From a virus (taxonomy: Duplodnaviria > Caudoviricetes), in the IMG/VR virus record IMGVR_UViG_3300037484_000062, positions 1 to 41,169 of that record: a stretch of DNA of 41,169 bases; one strand, given 5' to 3'. Under the pieces are notes generated by a model. It was not told the origin of the DNA and did not search any database. It saw only the letters and a list, made by a program, of their open reading frames with translations. The position numbers and the translations under genes are program-made. Positions 4,690 through 41,169 of the stretch are shown piece by piece (position 1 is the stretch's first letter; each line of letters starts with the position of its first letter).

Positions 4690-5400
4690 CCCCTTGGTGC
4701 GTTGGGCAGCGCGGGTGGGGGGCATCTGGGTCAGCGGCCGTGCTGCGGTGAGCCGGCGCGGCAGGGAGGGGGTGCCTTAGGTCGCGTCGTATCCTCGCCG
4801 CCTTGCCGCGCAGCGTGACGCGTGCTGCGTCATAGCAGCTTGAGCATAGCGCGGTGAGGGTACCAGTGTGGACGCATCCTAGAGGCTGCGGGCATTGCCG
4901 CGTCGCAGCATACCAGCATGCCGCAGTGTGTCTCAGATATTGCTGATATCTCCGAGCCTCTATCGCTCCACTTGTACCAAGGTAAGCATACTTAACTGAG
5001 AAAAGGTAGCTAGATGTAAGTAATATATAGTTATGAATATATATCGATATAATCAGAAAGAGAAATAACCCGTCTCAACCAGATATCACTTACGCCTAAT
5101 GTACCCTATGGAGTATACTGCACCCTGCAAAATAAGCAATATTGCGCAAAATGGCGAAAACCCCTTGCCACCATTGCATCGTCTCAGCGTGTCTCAATAG
5201 AGATATTGCAGACTGTGCCAGAGATGAGAAGTGCACTCAACAACCCCATTTTGCCGTATCATCTCTTGAATTGATCGCCGTTCGCATTTGTGCGCTCTCC
5301 CATCTCTCCTCGGAGATATGCCAGAAATATGGCCCCTGGTCTCAGGTAGTCTCACCGGCTCCCTCGGCGCCCATCCGAGATATCCCGAGAAATTCCGACT
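4690..5400. other. Non-coding divergent control region; candidate origin or packaging region
   Basis: No credible ORF; AT-rich core at about 4980-5150; repeated GTCTCA and AGATAT hexamers. Confidence 0.6.
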
Positions 5401-5407
5401 CAACCCC

Positions 5408-5436
5408 TTGACATGCTAACGCGGACACCTTATATT
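5408..5436 (+). promoter_or_regulatory. Early sigma70 promoter TTGACA-N17-TATATT
   Basis: Near-consensus boxes, 17-nt spacer, upstream of the first early gene. Confidence 0.8.
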
Positions 5437-5487
5437 AACGTCATGGAATCCGACTATCAACGCACTACCGGGGCTGGAGGCTATGAA

Positions 5488-7219: not shown

Positions 7220-7248
7220 TTGACAGGCCGTTTCGAATAACCTAGATT
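7220..7248 (+). promoter_or_regulatory. Sigma70 promoter TTGACA-N17-TAGATT, -10 overlapped by the CCTAGATTTGCCAA motif
   Basis: -35 at 7220-7225, -10 at 7243-7248; precedes the cassette operon. Confidence 0.75.
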
Positions 7249-7269: not shown

Positions 7270-7521
7270 ATGACAGAACACCAGCCATGCAAGCAACACG
7301 AGAGCAAGGCGGTGCACCGCAGCGAGGGCGTGCCCTTCTGCAGAGACTGCGAGATCGACACGCTGCGCGGCCTGCTGCGCGAGGTGGTGAACTGCCCCGA
7401 GTCGGAGTATGAGCAAGAGGGTGAATACTACATCGTGGAGATTCCCGCCGCGCTCTGGAACAAGATCCTGCCGCTCCGCACGCCGCCGGTTGTGGTCGTC
7501 AACGGTGAGGTGAAGCCATGA
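7270..7521 (+). CDS. Hypothetical cassette protein (83 aa) with CxxH...CxxC, ending GEVKP
   Basis: GGGAGG RBS; ends in the junction element. Confidence 0.75.
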   Translation: MTEHQPCKQHESKAVHRSEGVPFCRDCEIDTLRGLLREVVNCPESEYEQEGEYYIVEIPAALWNKILPLRTPPVVVVNGEVKP

Positions 7522-7690
7522 GCGAGTCCATCGACAAGCTGAAAGAGGATCTGTGGTATCTGCTCAACGTAGCCAGCATGAGCGGAGATTCCGGGGCGGT
7601 GGCTGCCGCAAAGGCGATCGAGGCGGCGCTCGACGAGCTGTCCATTCTCAGGCTCCGCACCTTGGGTGAGGTGAAGCCATGAGCGAGTCC
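7504..7690 (+). repeat. 26-bp perfect direct repeat GGTGAGGTGAAGCCATGAGCGAGTCC at 7504-7529 and 7665-7690
   Basis: Read directly from the sequence; flanks a 54-aa gene. Confidence 0.9.
7518..7682 (+). CDS. Hypothetical cassette protein (54 aa, MSESIDKLKEDLWY...LGEVKP)
   Basis: ATGA overlaps at both ends; not in the ORF track. Confidence 0.75.
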   Translation: MSESIDKLKEDLWYLLNVASMSGDSGAVAAAKAIEAALDELSILRLRTLGEVKP

Positions 7691-8353
7691 GTGTTGGCGT
7701 GGCATTTTCTACCCAGAAACAAGCACCTGCAGTTTGGTGATCGTCCGGTGCTTGTGCGCCCCGGTCAAACGCTACGGCGCGATCCCGAGAAGTTGGAGAT
7801 GTGCAAGTACGGGTTGCACGCATCAGTGCGCCCGTTGGATGCACTCTCCTACGCCCCTGGTCCAATCGTCTGCCGGGTGCGCTTGGGTGGCCGGATTCTC
7901 CATGGCGATGACAAGTGCGTGGCTTCTCGCCGCACGGTGCTTTGGATGGCAGACGCCGACAAGAGACTTCGGCTGTTCGCGTGTTGGTGCGTGCGTAACA
8001 CGCTGCTACCAGACGGCCATGTGGTCTGGGATCTGCTGACGGATGAGAGATCGCGCCATGCGGTCGAGGTGGCGGAACGGTATGCGCGTGGCAGGGCCAC
8101 CCAGAGAGAGCTTGCCGCAGCCTGGGACGCAGCCGGGGCCGCAGCCGGGGCCGCAGCCGGGGCCGCAGCCAGGGCCGCAGCCAGGGCCGCAGCCGGGGCC
8201 GCAGCCAGGGCCGCAGCCTGGGCCGCAGCCAGGGACGCAGCCAGGGCCGCAGCCAGGGACGCAGCCTGGGCCGCAGCCTGGGCCGCAGCCAGGGCCGCAC
8301 AAAATAAACGGCTTGAACAGATGCTCATGGGACTCATGCACAAGGAGGGTTGA
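7679..8353 (+). CDS. Phage protein with C-terminal AA(W/R/G)(A/D) alanine repeats (224 aa)
   Basis: C..GLHAS...DAL.Y domain, RLFA.WC...D.RSR.AVEVA, tetrapeptide repeat tail. Confidence 0.8.
   Translation: MSESVLAWHFLPRNKHLQFGDRPVLVRPGQTLRRDPEKLEMCKYGLHASVRPLDALSYAPGPIVCRVRLGGRILHGDDKCVASRRTVLWMADADKRLRLFACWCVRNTLLPDGHVVWDLLTDERSRHAVEVAERYARGRATQRELAAAWDAAGAAAGAAAGAAARAAARAAAGAAARAAAWAAARDAARAAARDAAWAAAWAAARAAQNKRLEQMLMGLMHKEG
8114..8299 (+). repeat. 12-bp tandem repeat G(C/A)CGCAGCC(G/A/T)GG, about 15.5 copies
   Basis: Read directly from the sequence. Confidence 0.9.
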
Positions 8354-8354
8354 G

Positions 8355-8654
8355 ATGCGGAACAGCTATTTCTTCACTGGTGCGAACGCTCTGAAGGACC
8401 TGAAGGTGATGCACAAGCACTGGGATGCCGTGGGGATGCTCCTCGGGCGGCTCGAGGCGCAGGGGGAGTTCTCGCTCGGCAAGCACGGGCGGTTCAATCT
8501 GCCTGAGTGGACCGAGGTCCTGGACTTTGGTCGCACGCGCATCAAGGTGGTGGGCATGGCCGGTCTGCCGATCCACTGCGTGGACGCCTCGACGCTGCGG
8601 GCGACGATCTCCTACCCTGACCAGGAGGAAACTGTGGAGGTGTCCAGTGCCTAG
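8355..8654 (+). CDS. Hypothetical protein (99 aa)
   Basis: AAGGAGG RBS, ATG 8355. Confidence 0.7.
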   Translation: MRNSYFFTGANALKDLKVMHKHWDAVGMLLGRLEAQGEFSLGKHGRFNLPEWTEVLDFGRTRIKVVGMAGLPIHCVDASTLRATISYPDQEETVEVSSA

Positions 8655-9003
8655 CCGGACTGAGGTTGAGATGCTGCGGGCGCGTATCAGCCAACTGACC
8701 GAATTCCTGGACTCGGAGACGCTACGGGTCAGCGAGCTGCTGGTGGAGAACCAGGAGCTGCGGAGTCGGCTCAGCCGCAAGTGGAACGGCCAGCGCCATC
8801 CCTTCCAGTGCCCGGTGTGCCGGCGGTACGTGAAGCTGCTGGAGGCCCAGCTCGACATGAACGACCAGGTCCTGTACGTGGTGGCAGCGTGCAAGACGCA
8901 CGGGCGGGTGACGCCTACTGGGAAGTGGACGGTTGACGACCTGAAGATCTCGCTGCCAACTGAGGAGCGGTCAATGCGCGTGGTACCAAGGGGGAACCAG
9001 TGA
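8647..9003 (+). CDS. Coiled-coil plus zinc-ribbon protein (CPVC...CKTH)
   Basis: GGAGG RBS, GTG 8647. Confidence 0.65.
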   Translation: MPSRTEVEMLRARISQLTEFLDSETLRVSELLVENQELRSRLSRKWNGQRHPFQCPVCRRYVKLLEAQLDMNDQVLYVVAACKTHGRVTPTGKWTVDDLKISLPTEERSMRVVPRGNQ

Positions 9004-9308
9004 ACCGCATCATCCTCATCAGCAAGACGCCGCTCGGCCTGTTCGACGCTGAGGTCTGGGTCACGGCCAAGGGTGACGGCCAGCACATCGACGCCGTGGC
9101 CGTCGACATGGGAATCTGGGAGGCCATCGAGAAGGTCGTCGAAGCCTACTGGGACGACTGGGGCGGCGAGACGCTGATCGCTGCCAAGGCCCTCGTCGAG
9201 CAGCTCGGCTCTAAGGAGGCCAACCACCTGCCGTGGCGAGCTGTGCCCGACAAGCCGGCGCCCGTCCACGTCGGCAGCTGGACGCAACAGACAGGGGAGG
9301 AGAAATGA
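9000..9308 (+). CDS. Hypothetical protein (102 aa)
   Basis: GTGA overlap; high GC at third codon positions. Confidence 0.7.
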   Translation: MNRIILISKTPLGLFDAEVWVTAKGDGQHIDAVAVDMGIWEAIEKVVEAYWDDWGGETLIAAKALVEQLGSKEANHLPWRAVPDKPAPVHVGSWTQQTGEEK

Positions 9309-9562
9309 CCAAGAAGAACACCGAAGTGCGGGCGACGACGCTGCAGCGGGTTGACCACCTCGAGAATGGGAGCATCCCAGCCCTTGAGGTGAGGGTTGAA
9401 TTCTTGGAGAAGCAGACGGAGTACCTACGTCGCAGCATAGAGGCGGCAGAGCGCCACCTCGATGGCGAGTCGCACCATCTGACCGACCTGCGTATCGCAT
9501 TCGATGACCACCGCCGCATGACTTTTGGTCAGCGGCTGAGGTGGCTGCTCTGGGGCGGCTGA
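9305..9562 (+). CDS. Hypothetical coiled-coil protein (85 aa)
   Basis: GGAGGAG RBS, ATGA overlap. Confidence 0.7.
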   Translation: MTKKNTEVRATTLQRVDHLENGSIPALEVRVEFLEKQTEYLRRSIEAAERHLDGESHHLTDLRIAFDDHRRMTFGQRLRWLLWGG

Positions 9563-9627
9563 TGGCGACGGCAATCATCTTCATCGTGGGGCTGCTGGTC
9601 GGTTACTGCTGGGGCCGGAGGTGGTGA
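9562..9627 (+). CDS. Small membrane peptide (21 aa, MATAIIFIVGLLVGYCWGRRW)
   Basis: TGATG coupling at both ends; hydrophobic. Confidence 0.5.
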   Translation: MATAIIFIVGLLVGYCWGRRW

Positions 9628-9851
9628 TGGCCTTGTCCTACGACCCTGCGACCATCCTGGGCTTCGCGCTGGAGTGGTTCGACAAGCACGAGCATCGGCG
9701 CCCGCGCTGCACGTGCTCGACCAACGCCAACGTCACGGAGACGCTGTCGACCGCAGTGCACAAGCCCGAGTGCCCGGTGTACGCCTTCACGCAGGAAGGA
9801 TGGCGGTGGGCAACCGATTGGTATTATGAGATGCACAATGACGGACATTAA
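9627..9851 (+). CDS. Hypothetical protein with CxC...HxxxC (74 aa)
   Basis: GGAGG RBS, TGATG coupling. Confidence 0.65.
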   Translation: MALSYDPATILGFALEWFDKHEHRRPRCTCSTNANVTETLSTAVHKPECPVYAFTQEGWRWATDWYYEMHNDGH

Positions 9852-10317
9852 AGAACGCTTCTGGTCGAAGGTTGACATTCGTGGACCCGAAGAATGCTGG
9901 TTCTGGAGAGCTGGGAGACTCGCAAGTGGCTACGGAGCGTTCTGGGTTGGCCGGACAATGGTGAACGCGCATCGCGTGGCTTGGAAACTGGCCTACGGTG
10001 AAATACCAGATGGCCTATTTTGCTGCCACACTTGCGATCAACGCCCGTGCTGCAACCCGCAGCACTTGTTCATCGGGACTAACTCAGAGAATATAAGAGA
10101 CGCCGTGAAGAAGGGCAGACTGACTAGAAGGAGGGGAGAGGACCATCCTTGTGCGAAGCTGACTCAATCCGATGTGAGATCCATTCGTGAGCGTCTAGTA
10201 GAGGGGTCTTCTGAGAGGGAAATAGCAGGAGCGTTCCAGGTGAGTAGACGGTGTGTCAGAAACATCAAACTAGGGCGGAGTTGGGCTTGGCTAGGAGGAT
10301 GTAATGACCACCCCTGA
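9838..10317 (+). CDS. Free-standing HNH homing endonuclease with C-terminal HTH
   Basis: RFWSKV..CW.W..GYG..AHRVAW..CHTCD...CCNPQHL..GT.SEN..D..KGR; lower GC than flanks. Confidence 0.9.
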   Translation: MTDIKERFWSKVDIRGPEECWFWRAGRLASGYGAFWVGRTMVNAHRVAWKLAYGEIPDGLFCCHTCDQRPCCNPQHLFIGTNSENIRDAVKKGRLTRRRGEDHPCAKLTQSDVRSIRERLVEGSSEREIAGAFQVSRRCVRNIKLGRSWAWLGGCNDHP

Positions 10318-10627
10318 CGCCTCCGTGCTGCTCTCCATGCTGCTGTTCGAACCCGGCATGGTGACGCGCTTCCCGCTGCCGGCGGCGCCGCAGCCTGAGT
10401 GCCGTGTCATGTGCCCATGCGGGCAGACGCCGAGGTTCGGGGACGGCGGCAACCTCACGACCATCACGTGCTACCACCGGCTGTACACGAGTGCGGAGTT
10501 CTCAGGGCACGTGTGGATCGGGCGCTGCCCGAAGTGCGGGAAGGTGTTCTACGCGGCGCGGCGGGACGCTGGGCTGCTGCCCAACAAGCCGCTGGTCATC
10601 CATCGGCACAAGATAGTGACCAAGTAA
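10304..10627 (+). CDS. Putative zinc-binding protein (CPCG...CPKCG, 107 aa)
   Basis: AGGAGG RBS; Cys motifs. Confidence 0.7.
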   Translation: MTTPDASVLLSMLLFEPGMVTRFPLPAAPQPECRVMCPCGQTPRFGDGGNLTTITCYHRLYTSAEFSGHVWIGRCPKCGKVFYAARRDAGLLPNKPLVIHRHKIVTK

Positions 10628-10641
10628 GGAGGGCCGGAAGG

Positions 10642-11097
10642 ATGCGTTCTTTCTCACGGGCTATTGGTTCGATCGCCATCATTGGTGCCCTTCCGGTCCT
10701 CCTGTTTTCCACGCCGGTCGAGGCGCAGCAGACACCGACCTCCATCTGGACAACACCGACCGCCACCAGGACACGGACAGTCACGCGCACGCCCACCAGG
10801 ACACGGACGCCGACGATCACGATGACTCCGACCGTCACCCCGGCGCCCACCTGGCCGGCCGTCTGCGAGACTCCGGTGTTCAAGGGCAACGACCTGATCT
10901 CCGTGCGGGTGCAGTACGCACACCAGGCGACCCCTGGCGTCCCCTACGTCAAGAAGTTTGGGCCGCTGCACTTCGATGACGACGGCCTCGCCGTGATCCG
11001 CGCCGAGGGTCACCCGAGCGAGTGCGTCTGGAGGTTCCACGTGGTGTTCGCTGACGGATTCGAGAGCGGCACGCTCGCCGCGTGGGGTGAGCCATGA
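10642..11097 (+). CDS. Secreted protein: signal peptide, Thr/Pro linker, C-terminal FADGFESG..W motif (151 aa)
   Basis: MRSFSRAIGSIAIIGALPVLLFSTPVEA|Q; TPTRTRTPT repeats; ends VFADGFESGTLAAWGEP. Confidence 0.75.
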   Translation: MRSFSRAIGSIAIIGALPVLLFSTPVEAQQTPTSIWTTPTATRTRTVTRTPTRTRTPTITMTPTVTPAPTWPAVCETPVFKGNDLISVRVQYAHQATPGVPYVKKFGPLHFDDDGLAVIRAEGHPSECVWRFHVVFADGFESGTLAAWGEP

Positions 11098-11360
11098 GTG
11101 AGATCAAGCCAAATGCCAACGGCACCTGTTCCCCGGACTGCCCGAGCTACACGCTCCTGGACACTGGGGGTGAACTGATCCCTGTATGCACGGCCAACGG
11201 AGACCACGTGACCGGAGAGGATGAGCATTGCCACCCCGGCCATGAGCGCCTGCAGGCGGCGCTGGACGCGGCGCGGAGATTGAGGAGCGCGGCGTCTCCC
11301 TCCGACATTGATCGTGCATTGGCTGACCTTGACGCCGCCCTGGATAAGGTGAAGCCATGA
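11094..11360 (+). CDS. Cassette protein (88 aa): Cys-rich N-terminus, ERLQAALDAA, ends DKVKP
   Basis: ATGA-coupled; junction motifs at both ends. Confidence 0.75.
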   Translation: MSEIKPNANGTCSPDCPSYTLLDTGGELIPVCTANGDHVTGEDEHCHPGHERLQAALDAARRLRSAASPSDIDRALADLDAALDKVKP

Positions 11361-11722
11361 GCGACGCACCACTAATCATCTATCTCCAGTGGTATCGCCC
11401 GGAGCCCTCCGACGTGACGTGGTGTGCTGACCAGATCAGTGACGACGACGTGAAGTACGTGAGGGCTGACGAGATCGAGCGCCCGCGATCCGTGCATTGC
11501 AAAGACTGCTGCTGTGCTCGTTCCTGGGAAGCCCTGGGGATCACCGAGTACACCGGACGCAGCATCCCCGAGGAGATCGAGCGCCTGCAAGGGGTGCTGG
11601 ACGCGGCGCTGAAGAGGTGCCGCAAGACGCTCGACGACACCCGTGGATATCCAATCTGGAGTATGTGCGGGGGTGCGGAGAAACGGCTCGGAAGATCCTC
11701 CGCTCTCTGGACGGTGTGGTGA
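11357..11722 (+). CDS. Cassette protein (121 aa) with EIERLQGVLDAA; GVVKP tail lies in another frame
   Basis: IYLQW...VTWC.D.I..DDVKYVRAD domain; stops at the middle TGA of the junction element. Confidence 0.75.
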   Translation: MSDAPLIIYLQWYRPEPSDVTWCADQISDDDVKYVRADEIERPRSVHCKDCCCARSWEALGITEYTGRSIPEEIERLQGVLDAALKRCRKTLDDTRGYPIWSMCGGAEKRLGRSSALWTVW

Positions 11723-11726
11723 AGCC

Positions 11727-11987
11727 ATGAGTGACACCAGAGTCAAGGTGTTTTTTGACCATGATGGGGGCGGGCCGAAGTGCGGACAGTGGATAGAGGC
11801 TTGCGACGGCGAACATTGTCTGATGCCGTGGGAGGAGTGGGAGCGCCTGCAATCGGTGGTGCGTCGGGTTGCCGCGCTCGCTGACGTGAGGAGCATCCTT
11901 GAACTGTCCGGGGAGTGGGTCGCTCTGATCCAGCAGGCCCGCACAGTCCTTGGTGCGAAGCCGGAGGACGGTGAGGTGAAGCCATGA
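11727..11987 (+). CDS. Cassette protein (86 aa) with ERLQ, ending GEVKP
   Basis: Starts at the junction-element ATG 11727. Confidence 0.75.
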   Translation: MSDTRVKVFFDHDGGGPKCGQWIEACDGEHCLMPWEEWERLQSVVRRVAALADVRSILELSGEWVALIQQARTVLGAKPEDGEVKP

Positions 11988-12277
11988 GCAACTTCAAATT
12001 CCGAGGTGCCAAAATCGAGGCGGTGCGGTTTGACAGCGGCAACAGCGTAGTCGCCACAATCTCAGCGTGGCGCGGGAAGGGGATTGGTAGCAACGCGACT
12101 TGCCACACGGTGGAGATCCGGTGCTGCCCCGGCGCGATGCATCAACTGATGGAGAAGTACGTCGAGGCGTGCAACTACCGACTGGCACAGGCAGAGGGCA
12201 ACCATCGGTGGAACAAGGAGCGCGTTGCGAAGGCGTGGAATGCGTTCGCTAGGACGGCCGGTGAGGTGAAGCCATGA
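11984..12277 (+). CDS. Cassette protein (97 aa) ending GEVKP
   Basis: Junction elements at both ends. Confidence 0.75.
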   Translation: MSNFKFRGAKIEAVRFDSGNSVVATISAWRGKGIGSNATCHTVEIRCCPGAMHQLMEKYVEACNYRLAQAEGNHRWNKERVAKAWNAFARTAGEVKP

Positions 12278-12681
12278 AGGACCAACAGCAGCCTCCGTGG
12301 GATGGCATTGAGGCGGCGATGCACGATGAGTTGCTCGGCAACAAGACGGCCATTCCGCTCCTTGGAGACTGCCCACGGCATCAGGGGGAATTGTGGAGGC
12401 ACGCACCGTGCCCGATGTGCGAGCGTGACGCCACCATCGCCCGCCTGCAAGCGGAGCGTGACCGTTCCGTACTGACGGCGATGGAGCGAAACACGGAGAT
12501 TCACAATCTGCAAACGGTGCTGGATGCGGGGCGGGAGAGGTGCCTTGACATCATCACGGACGTGGATGGTTACGAGAACGATGACGCTTACGGTTTCCGC
12601 GTGGCAGCACAGGAGATTCTCAGTGTTCTGGTCGGTGAGGTGAAGCCGTGCCCGACCTGCCACGGTAAGGTGAAGTCATGA
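12274..12681 (+). CDS. Cassette protein (135 aa): CPRH...CPMC, coiled coil, GEVKP-CPTCH-GKVKS
   Basis: Reads through a mutated junction element at 12634. Confidence 0.75.
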   Translation: MKDQQQPPWDGIEAAMHDELLGNKTAIPLLGDCPRHQGELWRHAPCPMCERDATIARLQAERDRSVLTAMERNTEIHNLQTVLDAGRERCLDIITDVDGYENDDAYGFRVAAQEILSVLVGEVKPCPTCHGKVKS

Positions 12682-12872
12682 GCTACCGAGAGATGGTGAT
12701 TGACGCCGGGTTGAACCCTGACAGCGACGAGGGTCGGCAGCTTGCCGCCCATATCGAGGAGGAGGAAAGGCGCCTATTTGCTCGCTGGCAGTGTCGGCTC
12801 TGTGGTGCGTACAACGACCACGACGAACCAATTTGCTTCTGCACGTACGACGAGGATTGGACGGTGAGGTGA
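12678..12872 (+). CDS. Cassette protein (64 aa) with a RanBP2-like W.C..C...N......C..C zinc finger
   Basis: WQCRLCGAYNDHDEPICFC; stops inside the junction element at 12863. Confidence 0.7.
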   Translation: MSYREMVIDAGLNPDSDEGRQLAAHIEEEERRLFARWQCRLCGAYNDHDEPICFCTYDEDWTVR

Positions 12873-12912
12873 AGCCATCTTCAACGGAGAGCAACACGAA
12901 AGGGAGTGAACC

Positions 12913-13002
12913 ATGAACACCACGACGGCATTGCTCATCATCGTTCTGCTGGTTCTGCTCTTCGGCGGCTGGAACTACTACTGGCCGGGGAGGCGCGACT
13001 GA
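12913..13002 (+). CDS. Small membrane peptide (29 aa, MNTTTALLIIVLLVLLFGGWNYYWPGRRD)
   Basis: AGGGAG RBS; TGATG coupling to the helicase. Confidence 0.6.
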   Translation: MNTTTALLIIVLLVLLFGGWNYYWPGRRD

Positions 13003-15509
13003 TGCGACTCGTCTGCCTTCCTGACCGCCTGTGCCTGACCGGGTCCGATGCGGTGCACTCGGCCCGTTTTGGGGCGATCCCCGGCGCTCGCTGGAACAAG
13101 GGCCTGATGTGCTGGGAGTACCCGAGGTCGCCGTTCGCGGCGAGGGCGGTTGTGGGGATTGCAGAGCGGAAGGGCATTGCCTGCGATCTGAGCAATGAAG
13201 CGACCATGATCCTCCGCCAGTTCGATGCCATCATGCACGCTAAGAAGTGGAAGAGCGAAGAGACTCCCATCCCCTCGGACAAGTGGGATACAGAGACTGA
13301 ACCTTGGGCACACCAGCGGCGTGCATCCCATTTCATCGCTCCGATGGTTGCCGCCTACCTCGCGCTGGACATGGGCACAGGCAAGACACTGGTGGCGATC
13401 AACGAGATCCTCGAGACTGAGGCTCAGCAGACCCTGATCATCTCCCCACTCTCCGTACTCGACGTGTGGGTGGACGAGTTCAGAACCCACTGCAGCCCCA
13501 CCAGGATGCCCCACGTCTGCGTCCTGACCAAGCCGACTACCGAGGGCAAGGCCAAGGAAGCACAGCGGCAGCAGGGGCTGGCACGGGCCGAGTCCAGGCC
13601 GCTCGTAGTTCTTGTCAACTATGAGTCGGCCTGGAGAGGGGGGCTGGGTGAGTGGCTGCTGAAGCAGACCTGGGACATGGTGATCCTCGACGAGTGCCTG
13701 CCAGCCGGCACACAGATCGCCACCCAAAATGGTCAGAAGCCGATCGAAGGGGTGACCGTTGGGGACGTTGTACTCGGGATGGACGGAGATCAAATCGTCA
13801 AAACAACTGTGCTGAATACCTGGGCGCGTGATACAATGGCACCATTGGTTGAAGTGGGACCAATCAAGGCGACTGGCAACCACCCGATCTGGACACGAAG
13901 GGGGTACGTCGATGCCTCACAAACGGTGCCATCCGATCACGTGCGAATACTGCGGAGAGACGGTCCTTCAGGACAATCCTTCGAGGAGGTTCTGCTCGAA
14001 GAGTTGCCGCACCAGAGCCATGTGGGAAGCGAGCCCGGAACTTCGAGAAGCGCAGTCGAAGAGGATGCAACTCCTGCGGCAAGATCCGTCCGTGCAGGAA
14101 AAACTCCGCGCCTATCTCGAGGGTCCAACCAACCCGCTCCGAGATCCAGCGGTGATCCAGAAAGCGCAGGAAGCAGCAGCGGCCAGGGGGTTCGAGCATC
14201 TGAACGGCGGGAATGGCAAGCCCATCGCCCAGCAACAGCAGAAACTGTTCTCTATGTTGGGGGCAGGATGGTCACTGGAGTACGTTTTGAGGACCGGCAT
14301 GGTGCCTCACCACTACAAGATCGACATCGCCAACCCGACAGCCAAGGTAGCAATCGAGGTGGATGGGACAGGGCACCAAGCGAAGAAGATCATGGAAGCA
14401 GACAGGCGGAAGGATCTCTTCCTAGCCAACCAGGGATGGATGGTGATCCGGGTGCGGAACGAGCATGTGACACCAGCCGTCGCGTCTTCAATTTTGAAAC
14501 TGTCACAGGCAATTACTTCGCCAACGGACTCCTAGTTCATAACTGTCACAAGGTGAAGGGAAACTCCACGCAGATCAGCCGCTGGGCGTCGCGCTTGCAC
14601 CACTCCGCGAGGCGCAGGCTCTGCCTCTCCGGCACCCCGCTGCCGAACAACCAGCTCGACGTGTTCGGGCAGTTCCGCTTCCTCGACCCGGCGCTGTTCG
14701 GCTCCAACTTCACCAAGTTCAAGGCGAGGTACTGCCGCATGGGCGGGTACGGGAAGTACGAGATCGTGGAGTGGCTGCGCCAGGACGAGTTCAAGCTCCG
14801 CATGGACGCGATCACTTTCCGTGTGGACAAGTCTGTGCTAGATTTGCCAAGTACCATGTGCATCGACCGCTACTGCACGCTCGAGCCGGACAGCGAGGCC
14901 GCTCGGGTGTACAGGGACGTGAAGAACGAGTTTGTGGCAGACGTGCAGAGCGGCGTGGTGACTGCGGCCAATGCGCTCACCCGCCTGCTCCGCCTGCAGC
15001 AGATCACGAGCGGTTTCGTGGGCGTCGAAGGCCACGGCGAGCAGTGGCTGGGCGACCACAAGCGTGACCTGCTGCACGAGGTGCTCGAGGGCATCGACCC
15101 GAGCGAGCCCGTGGTGGTGTTCTGCCGGTTCCGCAGGGACCTGGAGAGTGTGCATTACGTGGCCGAGAAGCTGGGCCGCGCCTGGGGCGAGTTGTCAGGG
15201 GTGCAGAACGACCTCGTCGCCGGCAAGCTGCCCGAGGGCATCAAGGTGCTCGGCGTGCAGATCCAAGCGGGCGGGCTGGGCGTCAACCTGATCGCCGCCC
15301 GGTACTGCATCTTCTACTCGGTCGGATTCTCACTGGCCGACTACGAGCAGGCCAAGGCGCGGGTGCACCGGGGCGGGCAGACCAGGGCGGTGACCTACGT
15401 CAACCTGATCGCCAAGGGCACGGTGGACCGACAAGTCTACAGCGCCCTGGACGCGAAGCGCGAAGCGGTGGACGAGATCATGGACGCGATCAAGAGAGGT
15501 GAAGTATGA
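13002..15509 (+). CDS. SNF2-family (DEXH) helicase containing an intein
   Basis: DMGTGKT, ILDE|CH, LSGTP, GGLGVNL, QAKARVHRGGQ; start reassigned to ATG 13002. Confidence 0.92.
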   Translation: MRLVCLPDRLCLTGSDAVHSARFGAIPGARWNKGLMCWEYPRSPFAARAVVGIAERKGIACDLSNEATMILRQFDAIMHAKKWKSEETPIPSDKWDTETEPWAHQRRASHFIAPMVAAYLALDMGTGKTLVAINEILETEAQQTLIISPLSVLDVWVDEFRTHCSPTRMPHVCVLTKPTTEGKAKEAQRQQGLARAESRPLVVLVNYESAWRGGLGEWLLKQTWDMVILDECLPAGTQIATQNGQKPIEGVTVGDVVLGMDGDQIVKTTVLNTWARDTMAPLVEVGPIKATGNHPIWTRRGYVDASQTVPSDHVRILRRDGPSGQSFEEVLLEELPHQSHVGSEPGTSRSAVEEDATPAARSVRAGKTPRLSRGSNQPAPRSSGDPESAGSSSGQGVRASERREWQAHRPATAETVLYVGGRMVTGVRFEDRHGASPLQDRHRQPDSQGSNRGGWDRAPSEEDHGSRQAEGSLPSQPGMDGDPGAERACDTSRRVFNFETVTGNYFANGLLVHNCHKVKGNSTQISRWASRLHHSARRRLCLSGTPLPNNQLDVFGQFRFLDPALFGSNFTKFKARYCRMGGYGKYEIVEWLRQDEFKLRMDAITFRVDKSVLDLPSTMCIDRYCTLEPDSEAARVYRDVKNEFVADVQSGVVTAANALTRLLRLQQITSGFVGVEGHGEQWLGDHKRDLLHEVLEGIDPSEPVVVFCRFRRDLESVHYVAEKLGRAWGELSGVQNDLVAGKLPEGIKVLGVQIQAGGLGVNLIAARYCIFYSVGFSLADYEQAKARVHRGGQTRAVTYVNLIAKGTVDRQVYSALDAKREAVDEIMDAIKRGEV
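13695..14543 (+). mobile_element. Intein (283 aa) inserted in helicase motif II (DE^CH)
   Basis: Block A CLPAGTQI, block B ATGNHPIW, block F VFNFET...NYFANG, block G LVHN followed by Cys +1. Confidence 0.92.
13912..14535 (+). CDS. DUF559/Vsr-like endonuclease with N-terminal zinc finger, nested in the +1 frame of the intein (207 aa)
   Basis: CEYC...FCSKSC; YKIDIA...VAIEVDG..H......DRRKD.FL...GWMVIRV; GAAGGGGG RBS before ATG 13912. Confidence 0.85.
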   Translation: MPHKRCHPITCEYCGETVLQDNPSRRFCSKSCRTRAMWEASPELREAQSKRMQLLRQDPSVQEKLRAYLEGPTNPLRDPAVIQKAQEAAAARGFEHLNGGNGKPIAQQQQKLFSMLGAGWSLEYVLRTGMVPHHYKIDIANPTAKVAIEVDGTGHQAKKIMEADRRKDLFLANQGWMVIRVRNEHVTPAVASSILKLSQAITSPTDS

Positions 15510-16158: not shown

Positions 16159-16358
16159 GCAAGGTACTGATAACTGTGCAGGTCACGCAGGACGGCGAAG
16201 ACAAGAGGCTGGAAGGGAATCGGACATTCTGCCGGCAGTTCTGGTGCACAACCATGGGGGACCTCACAAGGTCGCTCGACACGGTGGAGTACGAGGCGTC
16301 CCAGATGTTCGAGTTCGCTGCAACCAACGAGCCTGAGAAGGAGGGCGACGATGAGTGA
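16155..16358 (+). CDS. Hypothetical protein (67 aa)
   Basis: AGGAGG RBS, GTGA overlap. Confidence 0.6.
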   Translation: MSKVLITVQVTQDGEDKRLEGNRTFCRQFWCTTMGDLTRSLDTVEYEASQMFEFAATNEPEKEGDDE

Positions 16359-17100
16359 GAAGGGCAAGATGACGGTGTACCTGGACGAGGAGAAGAGTGA
16401 GTTCCTCGTCCTTCAGCGCGGGATCGAGGCCACCAAGGCCATCGTGCAGACCAACCTCGGGGGCGAGCCGATCCGCGTCACCGACCTCGACCGGGCGATC
16501 AACCCGGCGGGCAAGTCCACCAAGTGGGAGATCCCCGGCCTGGGCGACGAGATGGAGCAGGTGGGTGAGATCACGGGTGTGGTGATCTGCCAGCAGCCCT
16601 ACCGCATCTACTGGAAGGGGGAGTACAAGGGCGGCGGGTCACCGCCGGACTGCGTGAGCCTCGACACGATCCACGGCCAGGGCGTCCCCGGCGGCGAGTG
16701 TGGCAAGTGCCCGTTCAACGAGTGGGGCAGCGGGAAGACGCCGAACTCCAAGGCGTGCAGCTTCCGCCGCCGCGTGTTCGTGCTCCGGCCCACCGAGATG
16801 CTGCCCATGCAGCTCACCCTGTCCCCGATCAACGCCGGGGCGCTGAAGACCTACGGCCTGCGCCTGATGAACAAGCGCCAGCTCCAGCTTCAGCACGTCA
16901 TCACCCGCGTCAGCCTGACCACCGCCACCAGCAAAAACGGCTTCGACTACGCGAAGACGACGTTCGCGCTCGTCGACGTGCTGGCCCCCGACGTGGCCGC
17001 GCAGATGGACGCCTACCGGCACTTTCTCGAGCCGCAACTCCTCGGCCTCGCAATCCTCGACGAGCCGGCGCAGCAGCCGGAGGAAGACGTGCCGTTCTGA
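16351..17100 (+). CDS. Putative ssDNA-binding/annealing protein (249 aa)
   Basis: PDC.S.D...C..CP.N.WGS....KAC motif; acidic SSB-like tail EEDVPF. Confidence 0.65.
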   Translation: MSEKGKMTVYLDEEKSEFLVLQRGIEATKAIVQTNLGGEPIRVTDLDRAINPAGKSTKWEIPGLGDEMEQVGEITGVVICQQPYRIYWKGEYKGGGSPPDCVSLDTIHGQGVPGGECGKCPFNEWGSGKTPNSKACSFRRRVFVLRPTEMLPMQLTLSPINAGALKTYGLRLMNKRQLQLQHVITRVSLTTATSKNGFDYAKTTFALVDVLAPDVAAQMDAYRHFLEPQLLGLAILDEPAQQPEEDVPF

Positions 17101-21018: not shown

Positions 21019-21493
21019 CTAACCTCCTAAATAGTCAATGGCCGTTTGTAATAGGGTTGCATCATCCCTGAAACATCCGAGGCCAACGTTGCAGACACGA
21101 CACAACAAACCCCTCACCTTACCGGAGTCATGGTCATGGTCAATATGTAGCCTCTTACCAGGGGGGTGGTGGACATCCACAGATGTAGCACATGCCTCCG
21201 CTGGAAGAGTAGAGATTCTCGTAGTCCTCAATAGTCACCCCGTAGCGCCTCAGGTAGTAGTTGGCTCTTGCCCGCGTAATGACCAGATCCTTGTTCTTTT
21301 CGTACCACTTCCTTTGGCATTCCCTCTGGCCTGCTTTAACTGCTGGTATGGCTTCGTGCGCTTTCTTCTGCTCGAAGAGCTTCTCTCTGTGCTCAGATCG
21401 GTACTTCTTGTTGTACTCTTTCTGCTTCTCTCTGTGCTCAGATCGATACTTCTTGCCGTACTCTTTCTGCCTCTCTTTGTCCTTGGATGACAT
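21019..21493 (-). pseudogene. Endonuclease VII-type homing endonuclease split by a +1 frameshift
   Basis: RYG.T..Y.......G.CYICG in one frame; [21 protein letters not shown] in the next; switch at the C6 run 21161-21166. Confidence 0.8.
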
Positions 21494-40776: not shown

Positions 40777-41169
40777 TAGCTGGCACTCCCGTCAGCCGAC
40801 AACCCCGTGTGCGTATCATCCTCGTACGCAGCCGCGATCAGGGTTGTGCTGACATTGTCAAACCACGTGAACGAGTAGGCCCCATCCCCGCTTCGCGATG
40901 TCGCCAGCAGCACTTCCTTCGTCGTGCGGTCGAGCAGGTAGACGTACACGGTGCCAGTGCTGAATGCGCTCAGCGTCCCGCCCACTGTGAACGTGATCGA
41001 GTGGTAGGTCATCAGGACGTAGACGGACGCAAGATTAGTTTGCGTTGAGACCGCTGACCCAACGAACTTGTACCGCCGCGCAGTTTCGATGTCGAAGCGG
41101 GTGGTGTCTGGATCACCAGCCCAACGCTTGAAGAACCGACTGGCATCTGATTGAAGGAGGTAGATCCCG
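40776..41169 (-). CDS. 3' part of the 632-aa virion protein that starts at 1745
   Basis: The 78-aa ORF 40776..41012 is the in-frame C-terminus of the gene crossing the junction. Confidence 0.85.
   Translation of the reverse strand, partial: GIYLLQSDASRFFKRWAGDPDTTRFDIETARRYKFVGSAVSTQTNLASVYVLMTYHSITFTVGGTLSAFSTGTVYVYLLDRTTKEVLLATSRSGDGAYSFTWFDNVSTTLIAAAYEDDTHTGLSADGSAS
40930..41169. repeat. Terminal direct repeat, right copy
   Basis: Matches 1-240 with one mismatch. Confidence 0.95.

Follow-up and report, generated by a model that had tools for sequence, protein, structure and literature searches.

The DNA considered here (the window) comprises the 41,169 bases of IMG/VR virus record IMGVR_UViG_3300037484_000062 (Caudoviricetes), and contains small-gene arrays in a plus-strand run upstream of an SNF2 helicase gene, behind a promoter candidate at 7220. 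A preliminary description, made from the sequence alone, had noted an 18-nt motif repeated at the junctions of these small genes. This motif forms the 3' end of a larger in-frame block of ~35 nt (block B), which closes a gene in GEVKP-stop, provides a Shine-Dalgarno sequence, and overlaps the next start as ATGA. A second shared block of ~40 nt (block A) lies mid-gene in window genes 11094, 11357, 11727 and 12274 (named by their first base), and was missed in the preliminary description together with the shuffling of half-genes described below. The common plan of the array genes is a variable front half, block A, a variable back half and block B, and the modules between the blocks occur in other pairings in other phages. 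The parts of the locus are as follows, with the source of the assignment in brackets where one applies.

7220-7248 (+): sigma70-like promoter candidate upstream of the small genes, 10/12 consensus match (consensus scan only)
7270-7521 (+): 83-aa gene that closes in block B and has no block A; homologues in L056, G001 and G002
7504-7521 (+): block B core, exact (motif scan)
7518-7682 (+): 54-aa cassette gene between two B copies (open reading frame, ORF)
7665-7682 (+): block B core, exact (motif scan)
7679-8353 (+): 224-aa DUF7666 gene, start supplied by block B; a 12-nt tandem repeat at 8114-8300 encodes an Ala-rich repeat
10642-11097 (+): gene of 151 aa on the left flank, with a hydrophobic N-terminus; short-form B forms its end (sequence)
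11086-11097 (+): short-form block B (sequence)
11094-11360 (+): 88-aa A+B family gene (sequence)
11244-11275 (+): block A copy (sequence)
11343-11360 (+): block B variant, TAA as first stop (motif scan)
11357-11722 (+): 121-aa A+B family gene, ending at the middle stop, its block-B tail 2 nt out of frame
11579-11610 (+): block A copy (sequence)
11695-11730 (+): complete block B, with both upstream arm and core but without the first stop (sequence)
11727-11987 (+): 86-aa family gene containing the block A 5' half (sequence)
11841-11872 (+): block A copy, 3' half degenerate (sequence)
11970-11987 (+): block B core, exact (motif scan)
11984-12277 (+): 97-aa whole-gene cassette flanked on either side by an exact B copy; no block A (ORF)
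12260-12277 (+): block B core, exact (motif scan)
12274-12681 (+): 135-aa mosaic gene, comprising front half, A, middle insert, A, back half, read-through B, CxxC tail remnant and B
12439-12470 (+): block A copy, first of gene 12274, 5' half (sequence)
12502-12533 (+): block A copy, second of gene 12274 (sequence)
12634-12651 (+): read-through block B, third stop lost, joining the tail module (motif scan)
12664-12681 (+): block B variant (motif scan)
12678-12872 (+): 64-aa gene, ending at the middle stop (ORF)
12863-13002 (+): B, tail module, short-form B and 29-aa membrane-peptide gene; 84.5% shared with G002, which has another backbone
13002-15509 (+): SNF2 helicase (right flank), containing an intein (Hint domain match near residue 232) and a long insert; the L058 homologue starts directly in block B

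Exact copies of the 18-mer occur at 7504, 7665, 11970 and 12260, and copies with one or two mismatches at 11343, 11713, 12634, 12664 and 12863, as first reported, with short forms at 11086 and 12904. A scan of both strands placed all nine copies on the plus strand, and at ≤3 mismatches the 9 matches compare with a mean of 0.10 in 100 shuffles. Rather than one array from 7504 to 12916, as originally drawn, the copies form two separate stretches (7504-7682 and 11086-12916), with none in 7683-11085. Their reported placement at gene junctions holds, save for the copy at 12634, which sits within a gene and is read through; the gene ends in GEVKP or at the middle stop are as described. A spacer common to all starts had been named in the preliminary description as the mark of a plain strong ribosome-binding site. 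Scored at starts with a Shine-Dalgarno match of at least 5 nt ending in GAAG[C/T]C, this spacer is found at 7/42 window starts, all 7 in the array stretches, at 6/69 starts in G001 (5 in the array) and at 1/65 in G002, whose array starts were missed by the gene caller. The spacer of block B is thus not generic, but specific to small-gene stretches.

Block A was identified by a repeat finder plus alignment in 4/6 genes at 11094-12872, so that the cassette genes, initially taken to be largely unrelated, in part share a common segment. Some array genes hold two block A copies flanking a middle insert, and some block B copies lacking the third stop read into a tail, often of the CxxC zinc-finger type, which is closed by another B. 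Both blocks are always in a constant reading frame, and together they cover ~26% of the array DNA. Parts of the window genes recur elsewhere: the middle insert of gene 12274 is common to P0008, that of gene 11357 was found again (read by eye) in P0099, and the front part of gene 12678 recurs in P0048, fused in frame to A and a different back half.

The conservation of block A extends to synonymous sites. In copies located by their peptide, Gln is encoded by CAA in 28/29 cases, compared with 28/85 elsewhere in the same genes, Ala by GCG in 22/22 (104/290 elsewhere) and Arg by CGC in 20/22 (73/261 elsewhere), the copies counted not being independent of each other. In the core genes of the window phage, CAA is a rare codon, used for 10% of Gln. 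On the evidence of codon usage, this shows recent common descent of, or conversion between, copies with unrelated flanks. Avoidance of PstI-type sites was considered as a reason for CAA and rejected, the window containing 21 such sites, as was a Chi-like reading of block A, for which there is no strand bias or enrichment. In the predicted structure of one family member (mean predicted local distance difference test score 78.6), block A is spanned by a long helix and block B by a short one, the best-predicted helix being that of block A (residues 21-45).

Viral and metagenome contigs were scanned with the motif, all comparisons being with metagenomic assemblies. Arrays with both blocks were found in L056, L058, L062, L068, L081, L088, G001 (L002, L006, L084, L069) and G002 (L092). 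The G001 and G002 phages have a different backbone from the window, and none of five window core proteins (terminase, portal, capsid, helicase and primase) has a match in either. At the same locus, with the secreted-type gene and the helicase as common flanks, L058 contains one cassette compared with seven genes in the window, and its helicase starts inside block B. Up to block A, L062 and L068 agree at 99.4% identity; beyond it they diverge, and L062 continues with a G001 back half at 94%, which in G001 follows another front half. In other pairs the common part is the A-to-B half only (L056/L081, 87%), the B-to-A half only (L068/G001, 88%) or the A-to-A insert only (L062/G002, 81%), while L058 and L082 have another insert in common, and G001 and G002 share one front half at 97% with differing back halves. 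The segment at window 12857-12998 (B, tail and the 29-aa membrane-peptide gene) matches G002 at 84.5%. Gene content thus changes at block B in L058, G001, G002 and L062/L068, rather than following a fixed order in relatives, in agreement with the earlier proposal that the element is a joint for cassette gain and loss. The gene 7270 family includes an L056 copy that ends in B with another downstream gene and G001/G002 copies that do not end in B, and its joins also use partial overlap with block B. The window and G001/G002 have other scattered patches in common, which points to one host gene pool.

The flank genes at window 10642-11097 (151 aa) and L058:66-1217 (383 aa) have the same start context and C-terminal tag with a different body, and homologues of the C-terminal part of gene 10642 occur at other places in G001 and G002. 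Tags of this kind are a bacterial secretion-type signature, which may indicate the host.

Other collections yielded little. The match of G003, the closest window relative, does not reach the array; a 40-kb relative is present in the protein index and encodes P0070. Scans of viral sequences with the helicase and the gene 16351 homologue found no closer relatives. Two block-B patterns gave 0 loci in the genome collection, and window 11094-13002 has no match in GenBank phages. A block-A pattern scan of viral contigs returned the G001 phage only, plus 9 unrelated single matches of 15 stretches.

The position of the joins was examined at the level of DNA and of protein. Ten within-cassette shared segments with at least 40 non-block bases have 18/18 interior ends in blocks. 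For the 24 shared segments overall, 25 of the 43 interior ends fall in blocks (or the B start triplet region) of both partners, and a further 4 in a block of one partner only. Among 76 proteins (two short calls being replaced by their locus genes), a module is shared by 37 of 2278 scorable pairs: the front half only in 13, the back half only in 22, and both in 2, one half only thus being shared in 35/37. By module, the 76 proteins make up 58 families of front halves, 54 of back halves and 13 of inserts.

With a probability of roughly three in four, the small genes of this region form a phage array and are assembled from modules bounded by two in-frame blocks, the modules being re-paired in other phages, likely via recombination at the blocks. 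Exchange would take place between co-infecting phages and between copies within one array, driven by homology or microhomology. Crossing from A to A would exchange the front or the back half and so make a gene chimeric, or would bring in or drop a middle insert; crossing from B to B would allow whole genes to be gained, lost or reordered, or, where the third stop is lost, add a tail. After either crossing, the reading frame and the translational coupling of the products would be preserved. Since neither an integrase or resolvase nor a folded att site was found, short-homology recombination by host or phage proteins, rather than a site-specific integrase, is the most likely driver. In agreement with the integrase-free character first proposed, tyrosine integrase (PF00589) was detected in 0/3 records G000-G002 (control 14/14), which may be incomplete and would not reveal a host enzyme; no resolvase was found in the same records. 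Patches of <50 bp are argued to be sufficient for recombination in T4-type phages (PMC2839356). A candidate participant is encoded further downstream:

16351-17100 (+): predicted oligonucleotide/oligosaccharide-binding (OB) fold single-stranded DNA-binding protein, candidate annealing helper (PMC11795197)

Its predicted fold resembles the phiC31 directionality factor (Z 7.7, root-mean-square deviation 4.2, 157 aligned) and T4 gp32 (Z 5.0), both with weak scores. A TG1 protein related to the phiC31 directionality factor is a single-stranded DNA-binding protein (PMC11795197), and the product of gene 16351 is a candidate recombination helper only.

Several observations weigh against this interpretation. 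RecT or ERF annealing proteins were not found in G000-G002, and G001 and G002 are rated 71-73% complete. Outside the blocks lie 14/43 interior ends, of which 12 belong to flank or edge genes and 2 to short B extensions, and a stricter, more fragmenting run placed 12/29 ends in blocks of both partners (p ~0.05). BLAST extends through shared blocks, so the test addresses only whether an end falls inside a variable module, and 2/10 within-cassette segments (70% identity) may be block-stitched. The protein pairs are not independent, the module borders were drawn from our own motifs, and the protein database merges whole-gene copies at >90% identity, with clusters holding 1-2 members. The codon conservation of block A gives common descent or conversion, not its cause. 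The 19-mer occurs at ordinary bacterial operon junctions, where most of 48 loci hold one copy; the 19-mer alone is therefore a workable Shine-Dalgarno sequence plus ATGA overlap. A misjoin at a block in metagenomic assembly could fake a single case, such as L062/L068. That the reassortment as a whole is an assembly artefact at short repeats is very improbable: the blocks are indeed 25-45 nt repeats in short-read metagenomes, but the shared modules are 81-97% identical rather than identical, come from different datasets, and L002/L009, L006/L084 and L069 all show the G001 array in the same form.

A more substantial alternative, which accepts the shuffling and disputes only its adaptiveness, holds that the blocks are kept only for protein or translation reasons, as a helical scaffold and a strong start, and that repeats in an expanded family cause reassortment as a neutral side effect. 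The coincidence of block A with the best-predicted helix, the retention of A in the wider family of 213 representatives (with a GEVKP end in 23/98 new ones), and the single 19-mers in bacterial operons are all as this alternative would have it. It is nevertheless unlikely, since the synonymous sites of block A are fixed, including the phage-rare codon, and genes without A, as well as the helicase, are also attached to B. A different suggestion is that A or B is a site for a site-specific recombinase from a host or helper, as in integrons, in keeping with the block A core, which in the alignment is strongly conserved and near-palindromic, and with one window copy that folds with z = -2.7. Such a site is improbable, as no consensus structure emerged over 25 copies of A, the four block-B junctions fold no better than shuffles (z -0.7 to +1.2), crossover points vary inside and beside the blocks, and the three records contain no integrase or resolvase.

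The stops within block B bear on a further possibility. The consensus has TGA at motif positions 3, 8 and 16, in three different frames, which had led to the proposal of a frame-independent connector, its three stops selected to end and couple any incoming ORF. The consensus stands, although all three stops are kept in only 6/9 window copies (that at 11713 lacks the first, those at 12634 and 12863 the third). Among 32 upstream genes, 27 end at the ATGA overlap and 1 three bases later in the same frame, while 3 use the middle stop and 1 the first; 28/32 thus end in the GEVKP frame. Additional middle-stop cases are a G001 edge gene and a 33-aa ORF in L088. Of 33 copies in correct register, 7 have lost the first stop, 1 the middle and 5 the third, two altered first stops still being stops. 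The middle TGA is part of the Shine-Dalgarno sequence and the third is the ATGA overlap, so that these two stops follow from other functions, and one of the two middle-stop genes of the window (11357) is a frameshift of a normal block-B tail, through either mutation or assembly error. A connector designed for frame independence therefore has little probability, even with the 4/32 upstream genes and the two additional cases that use the first or middle stop. The stops other than the third are used by array-edge genes (L062, G001, G002), the L088 ORF and window gene 12678; with all three stops in use somewhere, they appear to serve as a fail-safe that catches edge genes and frameshifts, in a system that is itself frame-preserving. 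At L088:129-252, a B copy lacks the middle stop, and the upstream ORF reads through and overlaps the 33-aa ORF, which is hydrophobic and in another frame.

Integron cassettes form arrays of small variable genes behind a promoter, altered at repeated joints by IntI acting at attC. The array described here likewise consists of small variable genes behind a promoter candidate and changes at repeated joints, but its joints are coding and split genes, there is no IntI nearby, and no folded, attC-like conserved hairpin was found in 25 A copies, 4 B junctions or a comparison with Rfam. A closer parallel is PeSL (promoter early stem-loop) shuffling in the T4-type phages RB49 and phi1 (Arbiol 2010, PMC2839356), where short repeats in an accessory region are the joints of homologous recombination. 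In both systems small genes are gained, lost and replaced with breakpoints at the repeat, and an integrase was identified in neither. Unlike the PeSLs, which are intergenic promoter-terminator units that move whole genes, the joints here are coding and in frame, one of them is mid-gene, and half-genes reassort into chimeric proteins. A promoter plus terminator stem-loop does not accompany each repeat: a scan found no promoter-like or terminator-like sites at the block repeats, the only candidate being that upstream at 7220. Excised mini-circles were demonstrated for PeSL.

The lambdoid Ead/Ea22 proteins are small, early and mosaic, with a coiled coil, an optional insert, unrelated C-terminal domains and a +GE tag (PMC7093339, PMC10834534), the significance of which is stated as unknown (PMC7093339). 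The Ead/Ea22 family is also characterized by oligomers (tetramers) and a pro-lysogenic effect. The cassette proteins are mosaics too, their parts arranged about a helical or coiled-coil segment and closed by a common C-terminal tag, but Ea22 is described as one gene per genome, while up to five family genes occur here in tandem with both halves variable. The Ead_Ea22 domain (PF13935) was detected in 0/3 records at E≤0.1 (control 3/14), with only an Atlas lead of 0.79, and the family profile gave a probability of 0.2 against lambda Ea22, with no homology detected. At the end of lambda ea22 (L119:1048-1062), a Shine-Dalgarno-like run with GTGA behind it encodes the +GE tag, which, in this one genome, suggests a similar joint. 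The Start Associated Sequences (SAS) of cluster K mycobacteriophages and cluster EF Microbacterium phages are repeats in one orientation at the ribosome-binding position, better conserved than 16S pairing needs, with a proposed role in translation initiation (PMC3203893, PMC7302621). Block B shares with them its asymmetry, position, single orientation, restriction to non-structural genes and a conservation beyond what 16S pairing requires. It differs from the 13-bp SAS consensus (PMC3203893), the DNA upstream is coding and lacks the inverted repeats of the extended form (ESAS), and exchange, a conserved coding tail and a mid-gene partner block are not reported for SAS in the available text. 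The literature searched, largely main texts outside subscription journals, gave no account of phage arrays in which half-genes are shuffled at an internal coding block, nor of the two-joint form.

Elsewhere, the minus strand of the window encodes terminase, portal, major capsid and tail proteins, and the plus strand the SNF2 helicase, a primase-polymerase and a helicase/primase. The 240-nt direct repeat at both ends (1-240 and 40930-41169, identical) suggests a complete genome, although the record is classed as linear and 77% complete. The promoter consensus scan found 4 sites compared with 1.6 expected. An AT-rich gap at 4940-5440 between divergent gene blocks carries promoter-like sites on each strand and is a possible origin or control region. 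An HNH endonuclease gene lies within the small-gene region (9838-10317), and two tandem 45-nt copies (93% identical) lie in a small minus-strand ORF (21379-21468). In G003, the major capsid gene (L118:2449-4263, minus strand) is split by ~0.9 kb, probably an intron, which holds an antisense 199-aa HNH-like ORF and has no Rfam match. No tRNA was found in the window, and the array DNA has no match in Rfam.

A profile search with the cassette family retrieved 68 proteins at E≤0.01, with a GEVKP-type end in 51/66 counted proteins, and a 50% library contained 213 family representatives; statements on 98 further proteins of this wider family come from reading their sequences, the module count covering 76 proteins. 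Among the PHROG and Pfam matches listed (25 of 59 weak Pfam), no family is common to more than 5/51 members, and a fold search with the cassette model returned nothing at E≤0.001. The small size, early-type position, many Cys-rich inserts and shared helix suggest proteins that act early, on a common helical scaffold, to modulate the host or counter its defences, a guess that is rather likelier to be wrong than right.

As to its biological meaning, the system may, at somewhat less than even odds, serve combinatorial protein diversification, in which frame-fixed joints would assemble halves, inserts and zinc-finger tails from a pool of unrelated phages of the same host, selected for host binding or counter-defence, with the +GE tag of Ea22 as the trace of a similar joint. 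This would be the phage counterpart of same-phase exon shuffling. New small genes appear to be made by recombining halves, besides the acquisition of whole genes, and the origin of tiny orphan genes in phage accessory regions can be addressed here from a parts list that is directly readable. The linker-sequence idea of modular evolution becomes testable below the level of the gene, shared C-terminal tags such as the +GE of Ea22 gain a candidate explanation, and the arrays provide a natural library of small variable proteins for anti-defence screening.

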